Assembly (NCBI RefSeq): GCF_036269755.1
Contig: NZ_DATBDV010000006.1
Span: 489-64,488, forward strand
Origin: Sphingomonas sp.
Lineage (GTDB): Bacteria > Pseudomonadota > Alphaproteobacteria > Sphingomonadales > Sphingomonadaceae
Direction of reading: 5' to 3'
Length of the DNA stretch: 64,000 nt
Part shown: piece by piece, positions 6,697 to 17,457 of the stretch
Layout: every line of letters starts with the position of its first letter
Numbering within the stretch: the stretch's first letter is position 1
The notes under the pieces: generated by a model
What the model saw: the letters and a program-made list of their open reading frames with translations, nothing else
Told to the model about the DNA's origin: nothing
Databases searched by the model: none
Made by a program: the position numbers and the translations under genes

Positions 6697-7692
6697 ATGA
6701 AAAGTTCGATCAAGCTGCTTTACACCGCTGGCTTCGCGCTGGCGGGCACCGTTGCGTTCGCGTCGCCCGCTTCGGCGCAAGCGACTCGGACATGGGTTTC
6801 CGGGACTGGCGACGACGCCAATCCCTGCAGCCGTACCGCGCCGTGCAAGACCTTTGCCGGTTCGATCTCGAAGACCGCCGCGGGCGGCGAGATCAACTGC
6901 ATCGACGCGGGTGGTTTCGGTGCGGTGACGATCAACAAGTCGATCACGATCCTGTGCGACGAGACTGAGGCCGGCGTGCTTGTCTCGGGCACCAACGGCA
7001 TCGTCATCAACGATGGCGGCGCTGGCACGGCTCAGGTGACGCTCAGCGGGCTGGATCTGGAAGGACTCGGGTTCACGACCTCAGGGTCAGGGATTCGCGG
7101 GGTATGGTTCATCTCGGGTGCGTCGCTGGTTGTGCGCAACAGCACCATCCGCAACTTTCGCGACGCCACCAACGGCACCGGCATCGCCTTCACGCCGAGC
7201 ACGACGGCGAAGCTGTTGGTTGATAACGTCTCGGTCACGGGCAACGGCAACGGCACTGCGGGCGGCGGTATCGTCATCCAGCCGACCGGCAGCGGCAGTT
7301 CGAAGGCAACGATTACCAACAGCCGCATTTTCAACAATGGCGGAACTGGCGTTTTGACGAGCGCTGTCGGGCTGACCGCCGGTACGGCGCTCTACACCGA
7401 AATTCGCGGCAGTGAGATTTCGAATAACAACGCCGGGGTGGGTGCGATCTCGCCACCATCGACGCGCAGCGTCATGGTGACGACCGTGCATAGCACGTCC
7501 TCGCAGAATACGCTGTACGGCGTCCTCAGCAACGGCTCGAGCGCGCAGAACCGGTTGTCGGACGACGTGATAAACATCAACGGCACCGGCGTTCAGTCTG
7601 CGGCGGGCGGTTTCTTGCTTAGCTACGGGGACAACCTGCTGTTCGGCAATACCACCGACGGCACGTTCAGTTCGACGCTCCCGAAGCAGTGA
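6697..7692 (+). CDS. Secreted protein with Cys-containing N-terminal domain and parallel beta-helix repeats
   Basis: Signal peptide ending ASA-Q; ATRTWVSGTGDDANPCSRTAPCKTF motif; repeated N/G/S/T/I-rich units (e.g. ITNSRIFNNGGTGV, IRGSEISNNNAGV). Confidence 0.8.
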   Translation: MKSSIKLLYTAGFALAGTVAFASPASAQATRTWVSGTGDDANPCSRTAPCKTFAGSISKTAAGGEINCIDAGGFGAVTINKSITILCDETEAGVLVSGTNGIVINDGGAGTAQVTLSGLDLEGLGFTTSGSGIRGVWFISGASLVVRNSTIRNFRDATNGTGIAFTPSTTAKLLVDNVSVTGNGNGTAGGGIVIQPTGSGSSKATITNSRIFNNGGTGVLTSAVGLTAGTALYTEIRGSEISNNNAGVGAISPPSTRSVMVTTVHSTSSQNTLYGVLSNGSSAQNRLSDDVININGTGVQSAAGGFLLSYGDNLLFGNTTDGTFSSTLPKQ

Positions 7693-7765: not shown

Positions 7766-7806
7766 AAAAGAAAAGCCCGGCGACCAAGCCAGTCGCCGGG
7801 CTTTCT
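7766..7806 (-). terminator. Intrinsic terminator for the precursor transcript (possibly bidirectional)
   Basis: 13-bp stem AAAGCCCGGCGAC/GTCGCCGGGCTTT, followed on the minus strand by a T-rich tract. Confidence 0.75.
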
Positions 7807-7838: not shown

Positions 7839-7979
7839 CTACGAAAGGCTGGCTTCGTTGGTGAAACCGCCTGACGTTTCCGCGCTTCCAGCCAGGAAAC
7901 GATCCACCGCCGGACGTTCCCAGGTGGGACGCGGTGCAGGATTGCGAGTGCTTACGTCCCGCTTAGGCTCATTGGTCAT
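7839..7979 (-). CDS. Lasso-type RiPP precursor peptide, 46 aa (MTNEPKRDVSTRNPAPRPTWERPAVDRFLAGSAETSGGFTNEASLS)
   Basis: AGGGGA RBS; WxxPxV leader motif; G/S-rich core with a single Glu; C-terminal Ser; lies directly downstream of the cyclase gene and has its own terminator. Confidence 0.8.
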   Translation of the reverse strand: MTNEPKRDVSTRNPAPRPTWERPAVDRFLAGSAETSGGFTNEASLS

Positions 7980-8013
7980 GCGTTCGTCCCCTGTTAAATT
8001 CGAACTCGAAACG

Positions 8014-8043
8014 GACATAACATTCGATCTGCCGTGCTGCCAA
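8014..8043 (-). promoter_or_regulatory. Putative housekeeping-sigma promoter for the precursor gene
   Basis: TTGGCA (-35-like) and GTTATGTC (resembles the Caulobacter-type GCTANAWC -10) on the minus strand at sigma70-like spacing. Confidence 0.35.
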
Positions 8044-8094
8044 GGATTAATTGCGCATCCGCTTCCGGACGAGCCGCACATTCGCGGACGCAGC

Positions 8095-10035
8095 TCACGC
8101 GTTGCTGCCTGAAGCCTTGCGCATGAAATGGCCGCTGGTGACGCCGCGCGCGAGCGCCTGACGATACGGCATGTCGATGTCGGGCCGGTTCCATCCGCCG
8201 TCCGGCCACTGCTCGATCAGGCGCAACATACGCTCGACGTCCAGCGCGGTCGCCGCGGCGGGCACGTCCGCCAATCGGGATACCTCGTCGCGCAAGTGTT
8301 CGCGCGCCGCGGTCAGGCCTTCGTGCCAATCGATGGATTGTGCTCCGCGTCTTCGTTCCGACAACACGGCTGGCGGCAAGCGATCGGCCAGCGCATCGAG
8401 CGCGAGTGCGCGTGGCCGCCCGTCGCGCAGGAACATCTCCATCGGCACCGAAAGGCAGAACTCGATCAGCCGCCGATCGGTGCTGACGTCGCGAATGTCG
8501 GTCCCCCAGCCGGCGAGTGCGCCCTTCTGGTTATTGCCGAAATCAACTCGCCGCAGGATCCACAGACGCGTCTCGAACCCGTTCCGCCGCGGCCGATACG
8601 ACAGGTCGAGCGCATGCTCGCGCGCGCGTCGCTCGATCCCCAGTTCGTTGAAGCGGCGCATGTTGCTCGCGGTGTAGACCGACACGTCCGGGACGGGGTG
8701 GTTCTTGGCCCGATTGAGCGCGCGCCACATGGCATCGGGAAGCCAAGGCCCGAACGCCTGGACTAAGGCGCCCCCCGCGCGCATGCCCGTCTCGCGCATC
8801 GTCGCCCGCGCGGTTTGCCACAAGCGAAGCCAGTGCAGCTTGGCGGCCTGCTCGGCGAACAGCTCCAGCCCCGCATAGCTGAAGGTCGCGTTGCCCATCG
8901 TTGCCGAGAGCACGACCCCCGCGCCGCGCTTCTGCGCCGCGCCGTTGATCGCGTTCCACCAATGCTGAATGTCGCTGTTCAACAGCGGTCGGTCGAACAG
9001 GTAGAAGTCGCGGTCGAGATCGTCGAGCATCGTCCGCGCACCGGTCCTGACCGTGACATGCTCGACATTGGGATAGAGCCCGGCGGTCGCCGCGGCGAGC
9101 GCGCTTTCGTCGCCGATGCGATTGGCGGGAACGAAGCCGTCATAGCCCGCCCGCGGTGCCGAAGTGAACGCGAGCACCCGACCCCCGCTTTGCGCCATGA
9201 GCCGCGCCGCCGTCGCGGTCGTCGCCCCGCTATCGAGCCCGCCGCTCAAATGCGTGGCGACAAGGCCGTTAGTCCCGCGCAGACGCGCCGCAATCGCGCG
9301 GTCGAGCTGTTCGCGGAGCGCTTCGGCATAATCCGTCGGCCTGCCGAGCTTCAACAGTCCGGGCGAAGGCTCCCAATGGCGCGTCGTTGCCACGCCGGAG
9401 CGCGAGACCGTGACGATCTGCCCCGCCTCGACCCGACTGACGCCTTCGTAAAAGCTGCGCGGGCCGTATTCCGGCAGCAGCGCGAGGAATTCCGCATTGC
9501 GCACCGCGTCCGGCGCGCGCGGAACCCGCTCGAGCGCGTGCAGTCCCTTGGGCATCGACGCAACCGCCACGAACCCGTCCGCCAAGTGATAATGGAGCGC
9601 TCGGCCGCCGATATGGTCGCGGGCGAGCACCAACTGCTGCTCGGCCGAGTCCCATAACACGAACGCATAATCGCCCGCGATATGCTCGAACAATGCGCTG
9701 CCCCAGCGCTCCCAGGCGCGGAGCAGGAACGCGGAATCGGGCAGCATCACGGAGTCTTGCGGATCGATCGCCAGCGCGCTCGCCAGGTCGTCGCGATTGT
9801 CGAGACGCACGTCCGCGACGAGGACGAAGCGTCCGCCACCGCCGACCAGCGGCTGGCGGTCGTACCGGTCCTCCGCGAGCAATTGATAGCGGCAGCAGCC
9901 CAGCGCGATCGCGCCATCGTCCCAATCGACGTTGCCGTGTGGCCCGTACATGCGTTGTGCGGCCATGATGCGGCCGCAATCGGCAAGCGCGTCGGGCCGG
10001 CCGTCGATGTTCCAGATCGCCGCCAAGGCGGTCAT
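8095..10035 (-). CDS. Lasso cyclase-like macrolactam synthetase (asparagine synthetase fold)
   Basis: ATP-pyrophosphatase loop HLSGGLDSG; RDHIGGRALHY; DRRLIEFCLSVP; the N-terminus (MTALAAIW) lacks the catalytic Cys of glutamine-hydrolysing AsnB; adjacent to RRE and B2 genes. Confidence 0.9.
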   Translation of the reverse strand: MTALAAIWNIDGRPDALADCGRIMAAQRMYGPHGNVDWDDGAIALGCCRYQLLAEDRYDRQPLVGGGGRFVLVADVRLDNRDDLASALAIDPQDSVMLPDSAFLLRAWERWGSALFEHIAGDYAFVLWDSAEQQLVLARDHIGGRALHYHLADGFVAVASMPKGLHALERVPRAPDAVRNAEFLALLPEYGPRSFYEGVSRVEAGQIVTVSRSGVATTRHWEPSPGLLKLGRPTDYAEALREQLDRAIAARLRGTNGLVATHLSGGLDSGATTATAARLMAQSGGRVLAFTSAPRAGYDGFVPANRIGDESALAAATAGLYPNVEHVTVRTGARTMLDDLDRDFYLFDRPLLNSDIQHWWNAINGAAQKRGAGVVLSATMGNATFSYAGLELFAEQAAKLHWLRLWQTARATMRETGMRAGGALVQAFGPWLPDAMWRALNRAKNHPVPDVSVYTASNMRRFNELGIERRAREHALDLSYRPRRNGFETRLWILRRVDFGNNQKGALAGWGTDIRDVSTDRRLIEFCLSVPMEMFLRDGRPRALALDALADRLPPAVLSERRRGAQSIDWHEGLTAAREHLRDEVSRLADVPAAATALDVERMLRLIEQWPDGGWNRPDIDMPYRQALARGVTSGHFMRKASGSNA

Positions 10036-10146
10036 TGCCTGTCCGTCCCCCAAACGCCCAACTCGGCGGAAGGCTTCGAAGTCGCATCGCGCGCCGCGCC
10101 ATGCAAGCCGCTTTTCGATTCGATCCACGATGGCTAGGGACGGCGG

Positions 10147-11079
10147 ATGCCGAGCGAGGTCCGCCATTATCGATTGTTCGGCCTGACGCTGGCGTCGGCG
10201 ATCGAATTACCCGACTTGCGCGAAGTGACGGAGTCGCGCCCGGACGTAACGATTACGATCGGTGAGGTGCCGATGCCGGCGCAATTGTCGGAGGTCGGGC
10301 TCAACCTCGTCGACGACGCTGCCGTCCTGCCGGTCGTTGGTGCGGGTCGCTATCGCGTGCGCGGCGGCACATCGATCCAAATCGATCCCGAGCCCGGCGC
10401 ACCGGCCGCGAATATCCGACTGTTCCTGCTTGGCTCTGCGATGGGAGCGTTGTTGCACCAGCGGGGGATGCTGCCGCTCCACGCCAATGCGATCGACGTC
10501 GGGGGCAGGGCGATCGCCTTTATCGGCCGGTCGGGGGCGGGCAAGTCGACGCTCGCCGCCGCGTTCCACGACCACGGCTGCGCGCTCCTGTCGGACGATA
10601 TCTGTGTCGTGACCGAGGGCCCCGACGGCGGCCAGTGCGCCCAACCCGGAATCCCGCGCGTGCGGTTATGGCGCGATGCGGTCGAACGCAGCGGTCGAGA
10701 CGCCGCTGGCCTGGATGTTGCTTATGCCGGGGTGGAGAAATATGTCCTGCAGATCGGCGAGACCTACGCCGATACGCCGCTGCCGCTCGCCGCGATCTAC
10801 GTGCTCGCCGAGCCGGATGAAGGCGATGCTCCCCCCGAAATCGCGCCGATCACGGGCGCCGCGGCAATCCGCGCACTCGCCGTCAACACCTACCGCGGCG
10901 CGTACGTGCCCCTTGTCGGCAGTCCGGCGGACCATTTCGCGCAATGCCAAGCGCTAGTCCGCGACGTTCCGATTTTCCTGCTTCGTCGTCCCTGGCGCGC
11001 CGATCGGATCGACGAGACCGTCCGCCTGGTCACCGCGCAAGTTGCGCGTGTCAGCGAGGATCGCCACTTTCCGAAATAA
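10147..11079 (+). CDS. HPr kinase-like lasso-peptide kinase
   Basis: LHANAI, GRSGAGKST (Walker A) and LLSDD motifs in lasso-cluster context. Confidence 0.88.
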   Translation: MPSEVRHYRLFGLTLASAIELPDLREVTESRPDVTITIGEVPMPAQLSEVGLNLVDDAAVLPVVGAGRYRVRGGTSIQIDPEPGAPAANIRLFLLGSAMGALLHQRGMLPLHANAIDVGGRAIAFIGRSGAGKSTLAAAFHDHGCALLSDDICVVTEGPDGGQCAQPGIPRVRLWRDAVERSGRDAAGLDVAYAGVEKYVLQIGETYADTPLPLAAIYVLAEPDEGDAPPEIAPITGAAAIRALAVNTYRGAYVPLVGSPADHFAQCQALVRDVPIFLLRRPWRADRIDETVRLVTAQVARVSEDRHFPK

Positions 11080-11353
11080 TCACGATGCCGTCGCTCGACA
11101 GGTCTTGCAGCAGGTCGCGGACATCCGCCTCGCACGTCGCGGGATCGACCTCGAACTCTTCGGCCAACGCCGCGCAAATCTCCGCGAACGACCGGGGCTG
11201 CTCGATCAACTGCCAAGTCCGCGTCGCGGTCGCGTTGAACCCGTAGCACATGCCGTTGCCGATATGCAGGCCGACGATCTCGCCATCCATTTCGGCCTCG
11301 ATCAGCCCGGCGCCTCGCCGCACCAGAATGTTGCTCGTATCGCTCCAATCCAT
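11051..11353 (-). CDS. PqqD-family RiPP recognition element (B1/RRE)
   Basis: 100 aa; EMDGEIVGL...YGFNATATRTWQLIEQPRSFAEICAALAEEFEVD..TCEADVRDLLQDL is the PqqD pattern; it is the C-terminal part of track ORF 11051..11965. Confidence 0.9.
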   Translation of the reverse strand: MDWSDTSNILVRRGAGLIEAEMDGEIVGLHIGNGMCYGFNATATRTWQLIEQPRSFAEICAALAEEFEVDPATCEADVRDLLQDLSSDGIVIISESGDPR

Positions 11354-11455
11354 CGCGCGCTTCCAGCATAACGGGGTGCGACGTTCAAGTTCGGCCGGGC
11401 GCATGGCGGCAGGAAACCCGTTGCGGGACTCGTCCGGCTGCGACAAACGGGGCGG

Positions 11456-11878
11456 GTGGGGCGACACGGGATCACGGATTGGGCGTTGGCCGCCGAAGCA
11501 TTCGCGTCGCTCGCGGTCGCGCGGCTGACGCTGCTGGTCGTGCCGTTCCCGGTGCTGGCGAAACGTCTGTCGGCGCCGCTTGTCAAACGCCGCTCGGTTT
11601 CCGCCGCCATTCCCCGGCGCGTCGGCTGGGCGGTCGCAGCGGCGGGCCGGCACAGCCCGATACGGTTCGTCTGTTTTCCGCAAGCGCTGGCGGCAAGGGC
11701 AATGCTGCATCGGCGCGGGGTTCCGACGATGCTGCATTACGGTGTTGCCAAGACCGAGGGCAAAGTTCACGCGCATGTCTGGCTGAGCGCGGCGGGCACC
11801 GACGTCGTCGGATACGTCAATAAAGCGGATTTCAAGCTGGTCGCGACGTTTCCTGCGCAAGCGATTTGTGCGGAATGA
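11456..11878 (+). CDS. Lasso leader peptidase B2 (transglutaminase-like); start uncertain
   Basis: CFPQALA (catalytic Cys), LHYGV and HAHVWL (His) motifs. Confidence 0.88.
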   Translation: MGRHGITDWALAAEAFASLAVARLTLLVVPFPVLAKRLSAPLVKRRSVSAAIPRRVGWAVAAAGRHSPIRFVCFPQALAARAMLHRRGVPTMLHYGVAKTEGKVHAHVWLSAAGTDVVGYVNKADFKLVATFPAQAICAE

Positions 11879-13104
11879 CGATGCCCGGCGCGCCTGGCTT
11901 GCGGGGAAAGGCGACGGACAGGAACGCGGCAATGCGCTTTCTGTGCCTTCTCTGTTCGCAAGCAACGCCCGATGGCTCGGCGGACGCCGCCGCGCTCGCG
12001 AGGCGCATCGCCGACTGGAACGCGTTCGAGCACCTGGTGGCGCGCCATCGGGTGGCCGGGCTGGTGCATGCCGGGCTCAAACGCCAACCGCAGATCGTCG
12101 TCCCTGTTACCCCGCGTCAGTCGATCGCGGGCGCTGCCGCGACGATCGCGCGCGAGAACATGGCGATGGCGCTGGAGACGGTGCGGCTTCAGCGGCTGTT
12201 CGACGAAGCCGGTGTGGACGCGATCTTCTTCAAGGGCGCGACGCTGGCGCAGCAGGTCTACGGTACTTTCGCGATCCGGCACGGCAAGGACGTGGATTTC
12301 GTCGTTTCGCCGGGCGACGTCGAACGATGCGTCGCGCTGCTCGAGCAAGACGGTTACGCGCTGTTCGATCTGCCGTCGCCGCTCAGCCCGCGGCAGTGGC
12401 GCGGGCTGCTGCAGTTCGCGATGGAGATCGTCATGATCCATCGCGACCGGCACATTCAGATCGAACCGCACTGGCAGCTTAGCGACAACAGGCGGCTCCT
12501 ACCGCTCGCAACGCTGGCCCGGTCGGCGAGCAAGGAATGGACCCGGATCGGCGACGTCGCGATCAGGACGTTCCATCCCGACGACTCGTTCGCGTATCTC
12601 TGCATGCACGGGGCGCGAAGCGGCTGGTATCGCCTGAAATGGCTGACGGACATCGACGCGCTCCTCAACCCCGCAGGGGAGGACGATCTTGTAAGGCTTT
12701 ATCGTCATTCCGAAAGCTTGGGCGTCGGTCCGGCAACGGCGCTTGCACTATCGCTCTATGCCCAGCTGTTCGGGCGCCCGGTCCCGGCCGAAATACTCGC
12801 TCGCGTAAGTGGCAACTGGACGTTGCGAAGGCTGCGATCCTTGAGCCTTTCCAATCTCGATCGGCCGCGGTCGATGCCGGGTGCGCGTCGCACATTCATG
12901 CTGCACATGCTGCTCGCCGCGGCACACGGCTATCTGCTGTCCGAGCTCTGGCGGTGGAGCGTCTCGGTGATTGACGTCGTCAGGGTTCCGCTCCCGCGAC
13001 CGCTTCACTTCCTGTACCCGGCCTTGCGGTTCCCCCTTTTGATCGGACGGCGGGTCGCGGCCTTGTTCGCCAAAAGCTCGGCTGATGACGCCCCCGCAGC
13101 CTAG
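11875..13104 (+). CDS. Nucleotidyltransferase family protein (lasso-cluster associated)
   Basis: FKGATLAQQVYG..IRHGKDVDFVV, IEPHWQL and WYRLKWLTDID motifs; ATGA overlap with B2. Confidence 0.85.
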   Translation: MTMPGAPGLRGKATDRNAAMRFLCLLCSQATPDGSADAAALARRIADWNAFEHLVARHRVAGLVHAGLKRQPQIVVPVTPRQSIAGAAATIARENMAMALETVRLQRLFDEAGVDAIFFKGATLAQQVYGTFAIRHGKDVDFVVSPGDVERCVALLEQDGYALFDLPSPLSPRQWRGLLQFAMEIVMIHRDRHIQIEPHWQLSDNRRLLPLATLARSASKEWTRIGDVAIRTFHPDDSFAYLCMHGARSGWYRLKWLTDIDALLNPAGEDDLVRLYRHSESLGVGPATALALSLYAQLFGRPVPAEILARVSGNWTLRRLRSLSLSNLDRPRSMPGARRTFMLHMLLAAAHGYLLSELWRWSVSVIDVVRVPLPRPLHFLYPALRFPLLIGRRVAALFAKSSADDAPAA

Positions 13105-13116
13105 CCTCCCGCGCGT

Positions 13117-15393
13117 CTAGGCGACGATCCGCACCGGCACGCCCTTGGCGGCCGGCGTTTTCGATTCCTCGTCGTGGTACCAGAGCGGAACCAGCGGATT
13201 CAGCTCGGGAAAGTACCCGCCGATGCAGCCGCGCGGGAGCAGGAACGGCGTGACGGCCAAGCCACCGACCTGTCGATCGACCCCGTCGTCCGCATCGCTC
13301 GCCAGCGCGACGACCTGGCCCTTGGTCAGCCCCGCCGCGGCGATGTCCTCGGGGTTCATCAGCACCACCTCGCGTGTTCCCTCGATCCCGCGCAAGCGGT
13401 CCGAATAGCCGTAGATTGTCGTGTTGAACTGGTCGTTCGACCGAAGCGTAATGAGGCGATAGCGGCCTTCCTTGTCCGAAAATCCGATCGAGCGCATCGA
13501 TTTGGGCACGGTGAACTGCGCCTTGCCGCTCTTGGTCTTCCACACGCGCTCGCGCGCCGGATTGCCGCGATAGAAGCCACCGGGGGTAAACACGCGCGCA
13601 TTGAAGTCGTGGAACTGATCGGGGTAGGTTTCCTCGATCAAGTCGCGGATCCTGGCATAGTCGCCGGTCCAGCCGTCCCAATCGACCTTGGGGTTGGGCG
13701 GCAACGTCGCCTTGGCCATGCCCGCGACGATCGCGACTTCCGACTTCAGATCCTTCGACGCCGGCTTATTCTTGCCGAGCGAGCCGTGAATGCACGACAG
13801 CGAATCCTCCATCGTGACCGCTTGCTCGCCGCTCGCCTGGACATCGTGCTCCGAGCGGCCGAGGCAGGGGAGGAGGTAGGCGACCTCGCCGTTGATCAAA
13901 TGGCTGCGGTTGAGCTTGGTCGCGATCTGGACGGTCAGCCGCAATTTCGTCCACGCCGCTTCCATCTTCTCGCGCTCGGGGATCGCGCGGACGAAATTGC
14001 CGCCCAGCCCGATGAACGCCTTGACCGCGCCCGACAGGATGTTCTCGCACGCCTTGACGGTGTTCATTCCCTCTTCGCGCGGCGGCTCGAACCCGAATTG
14101 CTCGGCGATCTTGTCGAGCGGGACGAGCTCCGGCTTTTCGGAGATGCCGACGGTGCGCTGGCCCTGCACGTTCGAATGGCCGCGCACCGGCGAGATGCCG
14201 GCACCGTCGCGGCCGATATTTCCCTTGAGCAGCCACAAATTGGTCAGCATCGCGAGATTGTCGAAGCCGTGGACGTGCTGGGTCAGCCCCATACCGTACA
14301 GGCAGATCGCGCGGTGCGATTCGACATAGATTTGTGCTGCAGCCTCGATGTCCGCGCGGGCGAGGCCGCTCTCGCGCTCGATCTCGTCCCAGCTCGCCGC
14401 GTCCGCCTTGGCCTTGATCTCTTCGAACCCGACCGTGTGTTGCTTGATGAAGTCCACGTCTAGGACGTGGAGCTTCTCTTCCGCCCACTTCTTCTCCTCG
14501 GCGGCGAGAACGTATTTGATCATCCCCATGATCGCCGCGATGTCGCCGCCCGATTTGACCTGAAGATAGAGCGTCGAGATTTGAGTCTCTTTCGGCGTCA
14601 GCATTTCGGTCGGGCTTTGCGGGTTCTTGAAGACCTCGAGACCCTTTTCGCGGATCGGGTTAAAGGTGACGATCTTGACCCCGCGCCGCACCGCTTCCTG
14701 CAGCGGATGAAGCAGCCGCGGGCTGTTGGTGCCGGGATTTTGCCCGAAGAAGAACATCGCGTCGCACAGATGAAAGTCGCTCAGCACGCAAGTGCCGACC
14801 GGAGAGCCGATCACCTTCTTGAGCGCGACCGAGGTCGTCTCGTGGCACATGTTCGAGCTGTCGGGCAGGTTGTTGTGGCCATAGAGCCGAGCGAACAGCG
14901 CGTAGAGGTAACTCGTCTCGAGGCTGGCGCGGCCCGAGGCGTAGAATACCGCCGCCCCCGGATCGATCGCCTTCAACTCGCGGCCTATGCCCTCGAACGC
15001 TTCCTCCCACGGACAGGGGACGTAGGTGTCGCTGGCATGGTCGACCCGCATCGGGTGCGTCAGCCGTCCCTGCTGTTCGAGGTCGTGGTCCTTCCACGTC
15101 TTGAGCTCGGTGACGGTGTGCTCGGCGAAGAATTCGGGGGTGCAGCGCCGCGTCGTCAGCTCCCACAAGGTCGCCTTGGCGCCGTTCTCGCAAAATTCGA
15201 ACGCATGCGGGTGCGCCGGCTTGGTCCAGGCGCACGACACGCACATGAACCCCTTGACCTTGTTCTGCCGGCGCAGCGTGTTGAGTGCGCCGAGCGTCGG
15301 CCGCTCGCGCAACGCCGTCTCGGCGATACCGCGCAGCGAGCCCCAGCCACCTTCGGCACCGTTATAGTGGACCGTCTCGTCTTCGTCGGTCAT
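13117..15393 (-). CDS. FdhF/YdeP family molybdopterin oxidoreductase
   Basis: GAEGGWGSL, CVSCAW, FCENGAKA, PDSSNMCHETT, RGHSNVQG and TLRSNDQFNTTIYG motifs. Confidence 0.92.
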   Translation of the reverse strand: MTDEDETVHYNGAEGGWGSLRGIAETALRERPTLGALNTLRRQNKVKGFMCVSCAWTKPAHPHAFEFCENGAKATLWELTTRRCTPEFFAEHTVTELKTWKDHDLEQQGRLTHPMRVDHASDTYVPCPWEEAFEGIGRELKAIDPGAAVFYASGRASLETSYLYALFARLYGHNNLPDSSNMCHETTSVALKKVIGSPVGTCVLSDFHLCDAMFFFGQNPGTNSPRLLHPLQEAVRRGVKIVTFNPIREKGLEVFKNPQSPTEMLTPKETQISTLYLQVKSGGDIAAIMGMIKYVLAAEEKKWAEEKLHVLDVDFIKQHTVGFEEIKAKADAASWDEIERESGLARADIEAAAQIYVESHRAICLYGMGLTQHVHGFDNLAMLTNLWLLKGNIGRDGAGISPVRGHSNVQGQRTVGISEKPELVPLDKIAEQFGFEPPREEGMNTVKACENILSGAVKAFIGLGGNFVRAIPEREKMEAAWTKLRLTVQIATKLNRSHLINGEVAYLLPCLGRSEHDVQASGEQAVTMEDSLSCIHGSLGKNKPASKDLKSEVAIVAGMAKATLPPNPKVDWDGWTGDYARIRDLIEETYPDQFHDFNARVFTPGGFYRGNPARERVWKTKSGKAQFTVPKSMRSIGFSDKEGRYRLITLRSNDQFNTTIYGYSDRLRGIEGTREVVLMNPEDIAAAGLTKGQVVALASDADDGVDRQVGGLAVTPFLLPRGCIGGYFPELNPLVPLWYHDEESKTPAAKGVPVRIVA

Positions 15394-15453
15394 CGCAATT
15401 CCTTCGCCTCGTCGCCAGCCGTCCAAGCTTAGCGCCGGCGGCTGTCATTTGCG

Positions 15454-15588: not shown

Positions 15589-15611
15589 ATCAAACGAATA
15601 TGTTGTTTGAT
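15589..15611. promoter_or_regulatory. Candidate operator ATCAAAC-N9-GTTTGAT at the NRPS operon start
   Basis: Perfect 7-bp AT-rich inverted repeat overlapping the first possible start codons. Confidence 0.3.
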
Positions 15612-17457
15612 GGCGCTCATGACCAGCCAATCTTCCCAAGCTCGGGCGTCGTCCGAAGCGTTCGCCTTTGTTCCCAGTGCAGCGGGTGTTCCCGCCGATG
15701 CGATCACGCGCGTGGCGCGCGCGCATCCCGACCGGACCGCATTGATAGCGCCCTGCGGGACGCTCAGCTATGGCGAGTTGCTCGACCGCGCGGACCGCGT
15801 TGCGGCGTGGCTGCGAACCAAGGGCGTCGGCGCGGAAAGCCTGGTCGGTATTTGCATGGAGCGGTCGTTTGACCAGCTGACGGTCGCGCTGGGCATATGG
15901 AAAGCGGGCGGCGCCTATCTGCCGCTCGATCCATCCTGGCCCGACGGCCGCTTGCGGATGATCGTCGAGGATGCCGCGTGCGCGGTCGTGGTCGGCCGCA
16001 ATGAGGTGGTCGAGCGGCTGGCGGGGGTCGATACCCCGGTCGTCGCGCTCGACTGGAACACCTTGCCCGCCGCCGAGGAAGCGTCCGCGACGCCGGTCGA
16101 TGCGGAGGGCTTGGCCTATGTGATTTACACCTCGGGCACGACCGGCAAGCCCAAGGGCGTCGAGGTGAGCCACGGCAACCTCGCGCATCTGATCGCGTGG
16201 CATAACCACGCGTTCGGCGTGACCGCCGACGATCGCGGCAGTCACCTTGCCGGGCTCGGGTTCGACGCCTCGATCTGGGAAGTCTGGCCGTATCTCTGCG
16301 CCGGTGCCTCGGTCGTGCTCGCGCCCGATGAGGTCCGCACCTCCGACACCAAGCTGCGCGCCTGGCTGATCGTTCAGGGCGTCACCGTCGCGTTCGTTCC
16401 CACCGCGCTGGCGCAGGAGCTGATCCGCGACGATTGGGCGAGCGGCGCCAAGTTGCGCTACCTGCTGACCGGCGCCGACCGTCTGCTCGGGCGTCCCCGC
16501 GCGGGGTTGCCGTTCGCGCTGGTCAACAATTACGGTCCGACCGAATGCACCGTGGTCGCGGCGTCCGAAGTCGTGCCGCCCGAAGCGGTAGAGAAGGGTA
16601 TCCCGGCAATCGGCCGCCCGATCGGCGCGACGACGATCCACATCCTCGGCGCCGAAGGCCAGCCGGTCGCAACCGGCGAGCAGGGCGAAATCTTCATCGG
16701 CGGGCCGTCGGTCGCGCGTGGTTACCGCCACCTGCCGGCGATGACCGCCGAGAAGTTCGTGACGATCGCCGGGGAGCGCTGCTATCGCACCGGCGACCGC
16801 GGATCGTGGCGACCGGACGGGCAGATCGCGTTCCATGGCCGGGTCGATGACCAGGCCAAGGTGCGCGGCCATCGCGTCGAGCCCGAGGAAACCGCGCATG
16901 TGCTGCGCGAGCATCCCGCGGTCCGCGCCGCCGCGGTGATCGCGGCGCCGGCCGCCGATGGCAGCGACATGCTGGTCGGCTATGTCGTCGCCAGCGACAC
17001 CGTCACCGCCGAGGATCTGCGCGATCACCTCGCCAATACGCTTCCCGAATATATGATCCCATCCGCATTCGTGCGGATCGACGCGCTGCCGCTCACCGCC
17101 AACGGAAAGCTCGACAAGAAGGCGCTGCCCGAACCGTCGGACGACAATGCGCTGGCGTCGGCCGGGTTCGCCACCGCGCAGACCGCGGCGGAGGAACGGC
17201 TGGTCGAGATCCTGACCGCGGTGCTCGGCCGCGGCAATGTCGGGATCGACGACAATTTCTTCCTGCTCGGCGGGCATTCGCTGCTCGGCACCCAAGTCGT
17301 GCTGCGCGCCGGCGAAGCGTTCGGCATCGACCTGACGCTGCGCGACCTGTTCCAGGCGCCGACGATCCGTCAGCTCGCGGCGCGGATCGAGGAAATCTTC
17401 CTGCGCATGATCGATGAAATGAGCGACGACGAAGCGCAAGCGCGCGCCGCCGAATAG
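15607..17457 (+). CDS. Stand-alone NRPS A-T didomain, predicted Leu-specific (start at 15607, 15610 or 15619)
   Basis: A3 YVIYTSGTTGKPKG, YGPTE, YRTGD and NGKLD; PCP FFLLGGHSL; specificity code read by eye as DAWFLGNVVK, the Leu signature. Confidence 0.92.
   Translation: MMALMTSQSSQARASSEAFAFVPSAAGVPADAITRVARAHPDRTALIAPCGTLSYGELLDRADRVAAWLRTKGVGAESLVGICMERSFDQLTVALGIWKAGGAYLPLDPSWPDGRLRMIVEDAACAVVVGRNEVVERLAGVDTPVVALDWNTLPAAEEASATPVDAEGLAYVIYTSGTTGKPKGVEVSHGNLAHLIAWHNHAFGVTADDRGSHLAGLGFDASIWEVWPYLCAGASVVLAPDEVRTSDTKLRAWLIVQGVTVAFVPTALAQELIRDDWASGAKLRYLLTGADRLLGRPRAGLPFALVNNYGPTECTVVAASEVVPPEAVEKGIPAIGRPIGATTIHILGAEGQPVATGEQGEIFIGGPSVARGYRHLPAMTAEKFVTIAGERCYRTGDRGSWRPDGQIAFHGRVDDQAKVRGHRVEPEETAHVLREHPAVRAAAVIAAPAADGSDMLVGYVVASDTVTAEDLRDHLANTLPEYMIPSAFVRIDALPLTANGKLDKKALPEPSDDNALASAGFATAQTAAEERLVEILTAVLGRGNVGIDDNFFLLGGHSLLGTQVVLRAGEAFGIDLTLRDLFQAPTIRQLAARIEEIFLRMIDEMSDDEAQARAAE

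Follow-up and report, generated by a model that had tools for sequence, protein, structure and literature searches.

The interval 7,839–13,104 of the window, by which we mean the whole 64,000-nucleotide stretch of Sphingomonas DNA analyzed here, is a genuine and intact lasso-peptide gene cluster of the kinase-bearing paeninodin/pseudomycoidin kind. It encodes a 46-aa precursor (A), an Asn-synthetase-like cyclase (C), an HprK-like kinase (K), a PqqD-type RRE (B1), a B2 protease and an NTP_transf_5 nucleotidyltransferase (N); every open reading frame is intact, and the catalytic motifs of K, B2, N and C are complete. From these sequences we predict an order of enzymatic steps and a 12-residue product, to which we assign a probability of roughly three in four, a figure that excludes the topology of the product.

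The six genes had been proposed in a sequence-only reading of this DNA. Each was found where it had been placed, the five other than the precursor by Pfam and NCBIfam profile matches (Table 1), and the domain assignments support the assignment of the enzyme set to the paeninodin/pseudomycoidin type. The suggestion that the system is undescribed does not stand: kinase-bearing lasso clusters in Sphingomonadales have already been reported (SyanK; Duan 2023, PMC10368454), and the cluster represents no new system but a variant within a known kind. The alphaproteobacterial branch that holds it is apparently undescribed; a search of the literature outside the Zhu 2016 JBC and Tietz 2017 RODEO data sets found no lasso clade with Ala at position -2 or with a mini-core. 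This branch extends over Sphingomonas, Allosphingosinicella, Rhizomicrobium, Caulobacteraceae and further soil and freshwater Alphaproteobacteria.

Homologous loci carry a conserved precursor beside the cyclase: the gene set recurs together with a homologous precursor in dozens of loci, far above chance expectation. These loci were gathered using an alignment of 30 cyclase sequences as the query, and a single cyclase as the query retrieved none. A non-antibiotic role had been suggested in the sequence-only reading, and in its favor paeninodin and pseudomycoidin themselves showed no antibacterial activity (PMC6993621).

Table 1. Features of the cluster and its immediate surroundings, in window coordinates
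Feature	Position	Strand	Evidence
Secreted right-handed beta-helix protein	6697..7692	+	Signal peptide, then invariant ATRTWVSG.GDD.NPCSRTAPCKTF cap
Intrinsic terminator, 3' of precursor gene	7771..7805	-	16-bp stem with 9 GC pairs, then T-run
Precursor peptide A, 46 aa	7839..7979	-	Homologous called genes (44-47 aa) adjoin relatives' cyclases
C-A intergenic region, promoter-like element and AGGGG RBS	7980..8094	-	Conservation
Lasso cyclase C, macrolactam synthetase, 646 aa	8095..10035	-	Asn_synthase (PF00733, E=8e-25), GATase_7 (PF13537, E=1.5e-20), ATP-binding motif SGGLDS
HprK-like peptide kinase K, 310 aa	10147..11079	+	Weak matches to Hpr_kinase_C (Pfam, E=2e-4) and HprK_rel_A
B1, PqqD-type RRE, 100 aa	11051..11353	-	PqqD (PF05402, E=2.8e-19), lasso_PqqD_Bac (E=7e-16)
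B2 leader peptidase, transglutaminase-like Cys protease	11456..11878	+	Transglut_core3 (PF13471, E=3.5e-18)
N, PsmN-like nucleotidyltransferase	11866..13104	+	NTP_transf_5 (PF14907, E=1e-47)

The biosynthetic enzymes

The cyclase begins with MTALAAIW, without a Cys nucleophile, as members of its class do. It has 1313 homologues at E<=1e-100, and its best NCBIfam match is the lasso cyclase model NF033535, at 253 bits and below the cutoff of 525. With respect to the curated NCBIfam lasso models, K and B1 likewise score below the model cutoffs, while B2 reaches 67 bits against lasso_biosyn_B2 (NF033537), for which the cutoff is 33. A start for the cyclase at 10167, which would give 690 aa, was rejected because its homologues are 645–646 aa long, and we therefore place the ATG at 10035.

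The kinase residues H112, K133, D150 and D151 are kept in no fewer than 90% of the 77 homologues compared, among them those of five Paenibacillus lasso loci, and they correspond to the His-Lys-Asp-Asp catalytic motif described for such kinases (PMC9266682). The kinase proteins of related loci carry PF27840 (ScmC). The 3' end of the B1 gene overlaps the end of the K gene convergently by 29 nt, and the same overlap is found in L071, the relative whose cyclase is 88% identical. In B2, C73 and H107 are conserved.

The G..DxD motif of N (G124, D142, D144) is conserved or invariant, and the protein may alternatively start at the ATG at 11932. A search of PDB sequences with N gave no match. Its AF2 model (pLDDT 91) has a core that matches the Pol-beta-fold transferases MenT1, ANT(2'')-Ia and LnuA, with target-normalized TM scores of 0.64–0.70. 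The protein is 31–33% identical to N of the two Paenibacillus lasso loci with which it was compared (L147 and L154).

The precursor gene and its signals

The 46-aa peptide had no match in an index of 5.8 billion proteins, and tblastn with it returned only the peptide itself; the precursors of related loci were therefore located by motif and position. The gene has, as the sequence-only reading had noticed, an RBS and a terminator of its own, namely GGGGA located 8 nt upstream and the hairpin read from 7805 to 7771.

In the intergenic region between C and A, a promoter-like element consists of CTTGGC, a spacing of about 17 nt, and TATG. Some 85 nt of this region are almost identical in L071 despite a coding dS of about 0.5, and the CTTGGC, TATG and GGGG blocks are kept in five relatives. 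An equivalent terminator hairpin occupies the same place in L071. Searched against Rfam, this conserved stretch ahead of the precursor gene matched no family.

The leader comprises M1–E34 and contains W(-15)xxP(-12)xV(-10), present in the sequence as WERPAV, followed by A(-2)E(-1). The predicted core is TSGGFTNEASLS, in which E8 is the sole acidic residue and the C-terminal end is ASLS. Thus the window precursor carries the lasso leader motif [Y/W]xxPx[L/V/I] together with an Asp or Glu at core positions 7–9, and it has the C-terminal Ser of the kinase-bearing type.

Reading the core from the precursor family

In order to fix the register, we aligned 48 precursors lying next to related cyclases with their Trp at -15, which is the register of the crystallized paeninodin-like PbaA leader (PMC13381572). 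Position 8 of the core is then Asp or Glu in 41 of the precursors and position 9 in the other 7, which accounts for all 48. Known lasso rings have 7–9 members. In 43 of the 48, the ring is followed by only 4–6 residues. An unbiased scan for the motif produced 47 matches, compared with 2 in the reversed-sequence control, and 43 of 44 short ORFs selected by the motif end in Ser. The unusually short core, which had been remarked on from this one gene, is thereby confirmed, but as a conserved feature that a large clade shares and not as a quirk of a single gene.

In the cyclase tree, the loci whose precursors have 12 core residues and a 4-residue tail, the window's among them, form a deep and supported clade (SH-aLRT 99), nested in a mini-core clade of 43 rows with the same support, and the latter is separate from both the Paenibacillus and the SyanA-like long-tail clusters. 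Across the seven 12-mers, position 11 reads L/F/Q/L/F/Y/F, so that a bulky residue adjoins the terminal Ser in six of them.

Thr at -2 is the canonical determinant for B2 and has long been held necessary; to our knowledge, the exceptions described so far have only Ile or Val. The window precursor has Ala at this position, as do 44 of the 48 related precursors, the remaining four having Thr, and Glu occupies position -1 in 41 of the 48. An Ala(-2)-Glu(-1) cut site would imply that the B2 of the window works without the canonical Thr, and the leader-peptidase/RRE pair would be of interest for accepting Ala-Glu in its place.

Two other registers must be weighed against the one adopted here. When the window precursor is taken alone, the spacing of classical leaders, Y(-17)/P(-14)/T(-2), yields T(-2) and Gly1, with the core GGFTNEASLS and an unprecedented 6-residue ring, G1–E6, which the sequence-only reading had raised as an alternative; the GGF is even kept in the nearest five relatives. 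The family alignment rejects this ring and leaves it very improbable: neither T/S at that site nor the Gly-Gly is conserved among the 48 precursors, and the acidic residue would stand at position 6 in 41 of them, beyond any known ring size. Placing W at -15, on the other hand, puts every acidic residue at 8 or 9, brings the invariant Ala into line with Thr in the four Thr-bearing members, and conforms to the documented register of paeninodin-like leaders (PMC13381572). A shift by a single residue is a different matter. Cleavage after AE-x may instead give an S1–E7 ring and an 11-mer; residue 1 would then mostly be Gly, Ala or Ser across the family.

Predicted biosynthesis

With the W(-15) register and its cut after Glu(-1), the pathway that we propose would run as follows. 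The 46-aa precursor would be transcribed from its own promoter, and B1 would bind the leader through W(-15)xxP(-12)xV(-10). The HprK-like kinase would then phosphorylate core S12, the invariant terminal Ser, on the linear peptide, in keeping with kinases of this family, which modify the linear precursor at its C-terminal Ser ahead of cyclization (PMC9266682). The Pol-beta-fold transferase N would further decorate the phosphoserine; PsmN is needed for the addition of hexose in pseudomycoidin, where one or two hexoses have been observed (PMC6993621, PMC9266682). B2 would cleave after Ala(-2)-Glu(-1), and the cyclase would link the newly exposed amine of Thr1 to the side chain of Glu8. The expected product has 12 residues, with an 8-residue macrolactam (TSGGFTNE) and a 4-residue tail (ASLS) that terminates in phosphoserine or phospho-glycosylserine. 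As small scaffolds, ribosomal macrolactams of 12 residues whose sequence can be programmed would be attractive.

Topology of the product

Among solved lassos, the loop counts 3 residues or more and the tail 2 or more, so that the isopeptide residue is followed by at least 5, and total lengths are 14–33 residues (PMC12214591). The window core has 12 residues, of which 4 follow E8. Cores of 12–14 residues are too short for an ordinary lasso unless the group on the last Ser serves as a stopper; since no side chain is able to sit below the ring, a threaded state would have to be locked by the C-terminal modification.

The sequence-only reading had favored an unthreaded product. This is plausible but unproven; it is one of two live options, and a minimal plugged lasso is about as likely. 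A head-to-side-chain branched-cyclic dodecapeptide that was never threaded and has a modified C-terminus, to which we give somewhat less than even odds while regarding it as a serious contender, would fit the four residues after the ring, one fewer than the minimum of solved lassos; LassoPred discards sequences with tails this short (PMC12214591). Purified pseudomycoidin lacking the K and N modifications is, moreover, branched-cyclic (PMC6993621). Yet ring closure by lasso cyclases is believed to take place round a pre-folded tail, and a 3-residue loop does exist among solved lassos (PMC12214591). The subclade with 4-residue tails has also retained both K and N, along with the terminal Ser and a bulky position 11, which fits a plug function, and phosphorylation comes before cyclization (PMC9266682).

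This order of events, together with the bulky penultimate residue and the proposal by Zyubko et al. that the phospho-hexose acts as a lock (PMC6993621), makes a plugged minimal lasso about equally likely. Its loop would be A9–L11, with the modified S12 below the ring, and we hold it to be just short of an even chance. Some other outcome, for instance cleavage at another site or a cluster that is inactive, is unlikely.

A more sweeping proposal can be put forward tentatively, and we consider it a good deal less than probable: these clusters would make the smallest products of lasso machinery, macrolactams of 12–14 residues with 4–6 after the ring, in which a phospho-sugar installed before cyclization is the sole plug, or which are unthreaded, and they would have a new Ala(-2)-Glu(-1) specificity. 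As part of that proposal, there may be a functional tie to the secreted beta-helix protein and to a type IV secretion locus.

Either topology would be of consequence. A minimal rotaxane locked by modification would represent the 'third stabilisation strategy' on which Zyubko et al. only speculated, whereas an unthreaded family would be a natural source of branched-cyclic peptides. The cluster thus offers a natural test of whether a C-terminal phospho-glycosyl group installed before cyclization can act as a steric lock, and the answer would be clean, because no side chain can take its place below the ring. The clade has probably been overlooked systematically, since structure-prediction pipelines leave out cores of this size; LassoPred sets a minimum of 5 residues beyond the isopeptide.

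Relation to described clusters

The pseudomycoidin cluster psmCAKB1B2ND of Bacillus pseudomycoides (Zyubko et al. 2019, PMC6993621) shares with the window the split B1/B2, the Asn-synthetase-like cyclase, the HprK-like kinase and the PF14907-type NTP transferase, and its C-terminal Ser is the site of modification, as predicted here. It differs in having a long-tailed core of about 24 residues (m/z 2618), as opposed to 12 with a tail of 4; in its cut site, which is of the Thr(-2) type and not Ala-Glu; and in its ABC exporter and co-linear Bacillota operon, neither of which is found here (PMC6993621). Paeninodin (padeCAKB1B2D, Paenibacillus dendritiformis; Zhu et al. 2016, via PMC9266682) and the paeninodin-like PbaA/PbaB1 (Popov et al. 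2026, PMC13381572) have in common with the window a WxxP leader with Trp at -15, and the paeninodin kinase resembles ours in its His-Lys-Asp-Asp motif; it phosphorylates the linear precursor at the C-terminal Ser (PMC9266682). Paeninodin differs by an exporter, a much longer core, Thr at -2 and a cluster with no N gene (PMC9266682).

SyanA/SyanK of Sphingobium yanoikuyae ATCC 51230 (Zhu et al. 2016 FEBS Lett, cited in PMC9266682) is a kinase-bearing Sphingomonadales lasso cluster whose C-terminal Ser is polyphosphorylated. The Sphingomonas-type loci with long cores, which are presumably SyanA-like, form a distant and separate cyclase clade with 10–12 residues after the ring; they include a third locus of the same genome (contig C23), L034 and L151. 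The bsf cluster of Bradymonas sediminis is, like ours, a lasso cluster of a proteobacterium that has K/B1/B2/N and a residue other than Thr at -2 (Duan et al. 2023, PMC10368454), but that residue is Ile, the leader spacing is Y(-17)xxP, phosphorylation falls on Ser3 of the ring, and a mature product was never obtained (PMC10368454). The lppA-K-B-S-D-N clusters for linear polyphosphorylated peptides share the tailoring set of K, RRE and N, and differ in lacking the cyclase and B2 and in having a YxxP leader, a SipW-like peptidase and linear cores of 45 aa (PMC13381572).

Export and possible decay

The sequence-only reading had noted that neither a dedicated exporter nor an isopeptidase is encoded. 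This holds for the cluster itself: tblastn with the ABC exporter of its relatives found no homologue over the 64-kb window at E<1e-5, and the annotated neighbouring genes include no candidate isopeptidase. It does not hold for close relatives, several of which carry an ABC exporter (L055, L074–77, L087 and L088), although L071 lacks one as well. The genome's best homologue of the exporter outside the window, an ABC transporter on contig C2 with 42% identity, was considered as a relocated exporter and rejected, as nothing lasso-related lies nearby. Export, if any, would have to proceed via a transporter encoded elsewhere.

The absence here of an exporter that relatives possess means that the cluster may be partly decayed. 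One could go further and regard it as a decaying remnant whose mature product is no longer made, since the exporter is missing from L071 too, its C2 homologue has no lasso gene near it, and the genes are split over four or five transcription units of scrambled orientation. We consider this improbable in view of the whole reading frames, the conserved catalytic residues, and the conservation of the precursor gene's promoter-like element and of its terminator. Furthermore, the arrangement persists in L071 with identical gene order and a precursor that is 74% identical, at a dS of about 0.5, and dN/dS relative to L071 is 0.12 for the cyclase and 0.27 for the precursor, the latter value indicating purifying selection on the precursor.

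A neighbouring beta-helix gene

Homologues of the secreted beta-helix protein, 45–64% identical to it, adjoin A or C in 18 related loci. A search of PDB sequences with the protein gave no match; its AF2 model is a beta-helix (pLDDT 79), and the fold matches in the PDB are generic ones, namely tailspikes, the AlgE epimerase and polygalacturonases. In two genomes the gene lies beside type IV secretion genes with no lasso genes near. Because of these contexts and the generic fold matches, we rejected the protein as a lasso-specific partner. The gene is a frequent neighbour of precursor and cyclase, and its membership in the system is uncertain. Related lasso loci often adjoin a type IV secretion locus.

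Gene set, relatives and selection on the precursor

The sequence-only reading had proposed a six-gene, lasso-type set at 7839-13104, and our analysis confirms it. All six genes were found, and the enzymes keep their catalytic residues: SGGLDS of the cyclase C, H112/K133/D150/D151 of the kinase K (matching the published His-Lys-Asp-Asp motif of lasso kinases), C73/H107 of the protease B2, and G124, D142 and D144 of the nucleotidyltransferase N. The cyclase reading frame formally starts at 10167, while 1313 homologues (645-646 aa) begin at the equivalent of 10035. A GGGGA ribosome-binding site precedes the precursor gene, and a strong terminator follows it.

Features of the cluster and its surroundings
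Feature	Position	Strand
Secreted right-handed beta-helix protein, signal peptide, convergent with A	6697-7692	+
Precursor A, 46 aa, MTNEPKRDVSTRNPAPRPTWERPAVDRFLAGSAETSGGFTNEASLS	7979..7839	-
Region upstream of A, containing 85 conserved nt	7980-8094	-
Asn-synthetase-like cyclase C	10035..8095	-
HprK-like kinase K	10147..11079	+
PqqD-type recognition element B1	11353..11051	-
Transglutaminase-like B2 protease	11456..11878	+
PF14907 nucleotidyltransferase N	11866..13104	+
Molybdopterin oxidoreductase	13117-15426	-
Stand-alone NRPS A-T protein	15607-17457	+

A cyclase occurs at E<=1e-70 in 15 of 401 sampled genomes of Sphingomonadaceae, the family of the 3.13-Mb window genome. In a large protein index 1313 cyclases reach E<=1e-100; the closest is 88% identical and the next ones 66-59%. 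The contig of this nearest relative, L071, has the order and orientations of the window (N-B2-B1-K-C-A), shares its 29-nt convergent K/B1 overlap, and carries a called 46-aa precursor gene, MTNDRKRDVSTRNPAPRQAWQRPAVDRYLAGGAESAGGFTNEGGFS. Between the two loci dN/dS is 0.27 for the precursor and 0.12 for the cyclase, and conservation is higher in the 85 nt preceding the precursor than in the coding sequence. A CTTGGC, ~17 nt, TATG element and a GGGG block upstream of the precursor recur in five relatives. Because of the called gene in L071, the dN/dS values and these conserved upstream blocks, we conclude from sequence comparison that the small precursor gene is real and under selection, and that the region upstream probably serves as its own promoter and 5' UTR. 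Those 85 nt are near-identical in the two loci despite a synonymous divergence of ~0.5; the region has no Rfam match.

Other relatives vary in detail. Two or three tandem precursors with differing cores occur in L080, L098, L123, L060 and L151, and one L080 copy ends in Val instead of Ser. The cyclase matches of the two loci L051/L057 (contig G081:C37) and L043/L063 (contig G290:C151) each contain one in-frame TGA; these may be pseudogenes or sequencing errors. L115, on a contig labelled Neptunomonas phycophila MAG, resembles the Brevundimonas loci L113 and L116 nearly exactly in gene order and in percent identities to the window proteins, and short branches join its cyclase to theirs. Mis-binning or a recent transfer of the contig may explain this.

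Leader register and start of the core

A profile search, with one genome per species, gave 80 loci from Sphingomonas, Allosphingosinicella, Sphingosinicella, Rhizomicrobium, Caulobacter/Brevundimonas, Croceibacterium, Pseudolabrys, Stellaceae and others. From these and earlier loci we collected 48 precursors and fixed their register by the Trp at -15, its position in the crystallised complex of the paeninodin-like leader PbaA with its RRE (PMC13381572). Read this way, 44 precursors have Ala at -2 and four have Thr, 41 of 48 have Glu at -1, and an acidic residue is core residue 8 in 41 and core residue 9 in seven, so that all 48 lie within the known ring range. Since the initial collection required a terminal Ser, we repeated the scan by the leader motif alone (W..P.[LVIMA].{7}AE). 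This returned 47 matches, compared with 2 for reversed translations; of the 44 short ORFs, 43 ended in Ser.

The classical Y(-17)/T(-2) register, which would give the window a G1-E6 ring, was rejected: it places the acidic residue at position 6 in 41 of 48 precursors. A register one residue later, with an S1-E7 ring, is still compatible with the sequences and would make residue 1 mostly Gly, Ala or Ser; however, the rings would then have seven residues, in most cases with Asp as the closing residue, and Thr would no longer stand at -2 in the four precursors that have it there. Whichever register is chosen, including that of the T1-E8 ring that we prefer, equally many residues follow the ring.

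Short cores as a clade property

Among the 48 precursors the core has 12 residues in 7, 13 in 14 and 14 in 22, with four residues after the ring in 10, five in 13 and six in 20. A quick maximum-likelihood tree of 59 cyclases unites the loci with such 12-14-residue cores in a 43-row group (SH-aLRT 99), separate both from Paenibacillus loci (13-15 residues after the ring) and from long-core Sphingomonas loci (10-12), including one on contig C23 of the window's own genome. In this quick tree the window and L071, L072, L073 and L075, all with 12-mers, form one clade (SH-aLRT 99); four-residue tails are also found in L089 (Sphingomonas psychrotolerans), L077 and L084, placed nearby. Judged by these sequences, the short core is a property of the clade.

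The window genome has two further lasso-type loci. L031 (contig C18, 8212-11815) is a second short-core locus, with a cyclase 47% identical to that of the window, a PqqD gene, a family-2 glycosyltransferase and a precursor on the strand opposite the cyclase. This precursor ends ...SATE|QGPFYLPDNAFGS, with Thr at -2, a Gln1-Asp8 ring and a five-residue tail. Within 19 kb of it there is no kinase, N or B2 gene; the closest B2-like gene is ~60 kb away. L033 (contig C23, 6225-10431) consists of kinase, PqqD and cyclase with a precursor of normal length ending ...SLVNNAGPDGVSSYSSISYGS. Together with the cyclases of L034 and L151, its cyclase belongs to a distant clade with long tails that is probably SyanA-like.

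Kinase-bearing lasso clusters are already known in Sphingomonadales from SyanK and the Duan 2023 survey, and the combination of K and N from pseudomycoidin. The literature searched, which did not extend to the two papers likeliest to list such clusters, yielded no report of the Ala-Glu cut site, of 12-14-residue cores as a clade property, or of a beta-helix/T4SS association with lasso loci.

Proposed pathway and topology of the product

By homology, B1 would bind WxxPxV of the leader, and the kinase would phosphorylate the C-terminal Ser on the linear precursor, as has been shown for PadeK and ThcoK. N would then modify the phosphoserine. PsmN is required for one or two hexoses on pseudomycoidin; LppN showed no activity when expressed in a heterologous host. 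For N, AlphaFold gives a confident model (pLDDT 91), whose core superposes on the Pol-beta-fold O-nucleotidyltransferases MenT1, ANT(2'')-Ia and LnuA (target-normalised TM 0.64-0.70), with weaker partial matches to the CDP-ribitol phosphotransferase FKRP. The modelled fold agrees with transfer from a nucleotide-activated donor, whose identity it does not give. B2 would then cleave after Ala-Glu, and C would close T1-E8. The ions expected from this pathway are 1152.517, 1232.483, 1394.536 and 1556.589.

The 47 solved lasso structures have loops of at least three residues, tails of at least two and lengths of 14-33, and LassoPred drops predicted cores with fewer than five residues after the isopeptide residue (PMC12214591). 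The window peptide, by comparison, has four residues after the ring and 12 in total. The earlier suggestion that it is too short to thread thus has an empirical basis in these minima, but the margin is only one residue. Two readings come out about equally likely. To a minimal lasso locked by its modification we give a probability of about 45%. Because the modification is installed ahead of ring closure, a plug too large for the ring is mechanistically possible, and exactly such a lock has been proposed by Zyubko et al. Both K and N are kept in every locus with a four-residue tail and sufficient flanking sequence, position 11 (L/F/Q/L/F/Y/F) offers a plausible upper plug, and solved structures include three-residue loops. 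An unthreaded, branched-cyclic product, to which we give only slightly lower odds, would fit a tail one residue shorter than that of any known lasso, and pseudomycoidin produced in the absence of K and N has this topology. The cluster's real interest lies in the test it offers of modification-locked threading.

Exporter, beta-helix gene and other neighbours

The ABC exporter of relatives (L055, L074-77, L087, L088) has no match within the 64-kb window. No lasso gene lies close to its best homologue in the rest of the genome, which is on contig C2 (42% identity).

The beta-helix protein has an almost invariant N-terminal cap, ATRTWVSGVGDD.NPCSRTAPCKTF, and its fold matches are generic carbohydrate-enzyme beta-helices. 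Homologues with 45-64% identity adjoin the precursor or cyclase in 18 loci, and 7 of these clusters are also directly adjacent to a VirB/Trb type IV secretion operon (T4SS). Two genomes of the family have the beta-helix gene next to the T4SS but no lasso genes close by; the window genome's own T4SS is on a separate contig, C19. We record this three-way linkage as an association. The loci listed for beta-helix linkage are L072-L077, L055, L078, L079, L084, L087-L089, L098, L099, L103, L114, L141 and L153, with L157 and L159 also listed.

The molybdopterin oxidoreductase directly follows N and is adjacent in L071 too, and the NRPS A-T protein comes next; judging by other relatives, both seem to lie outside the lasso cluster.
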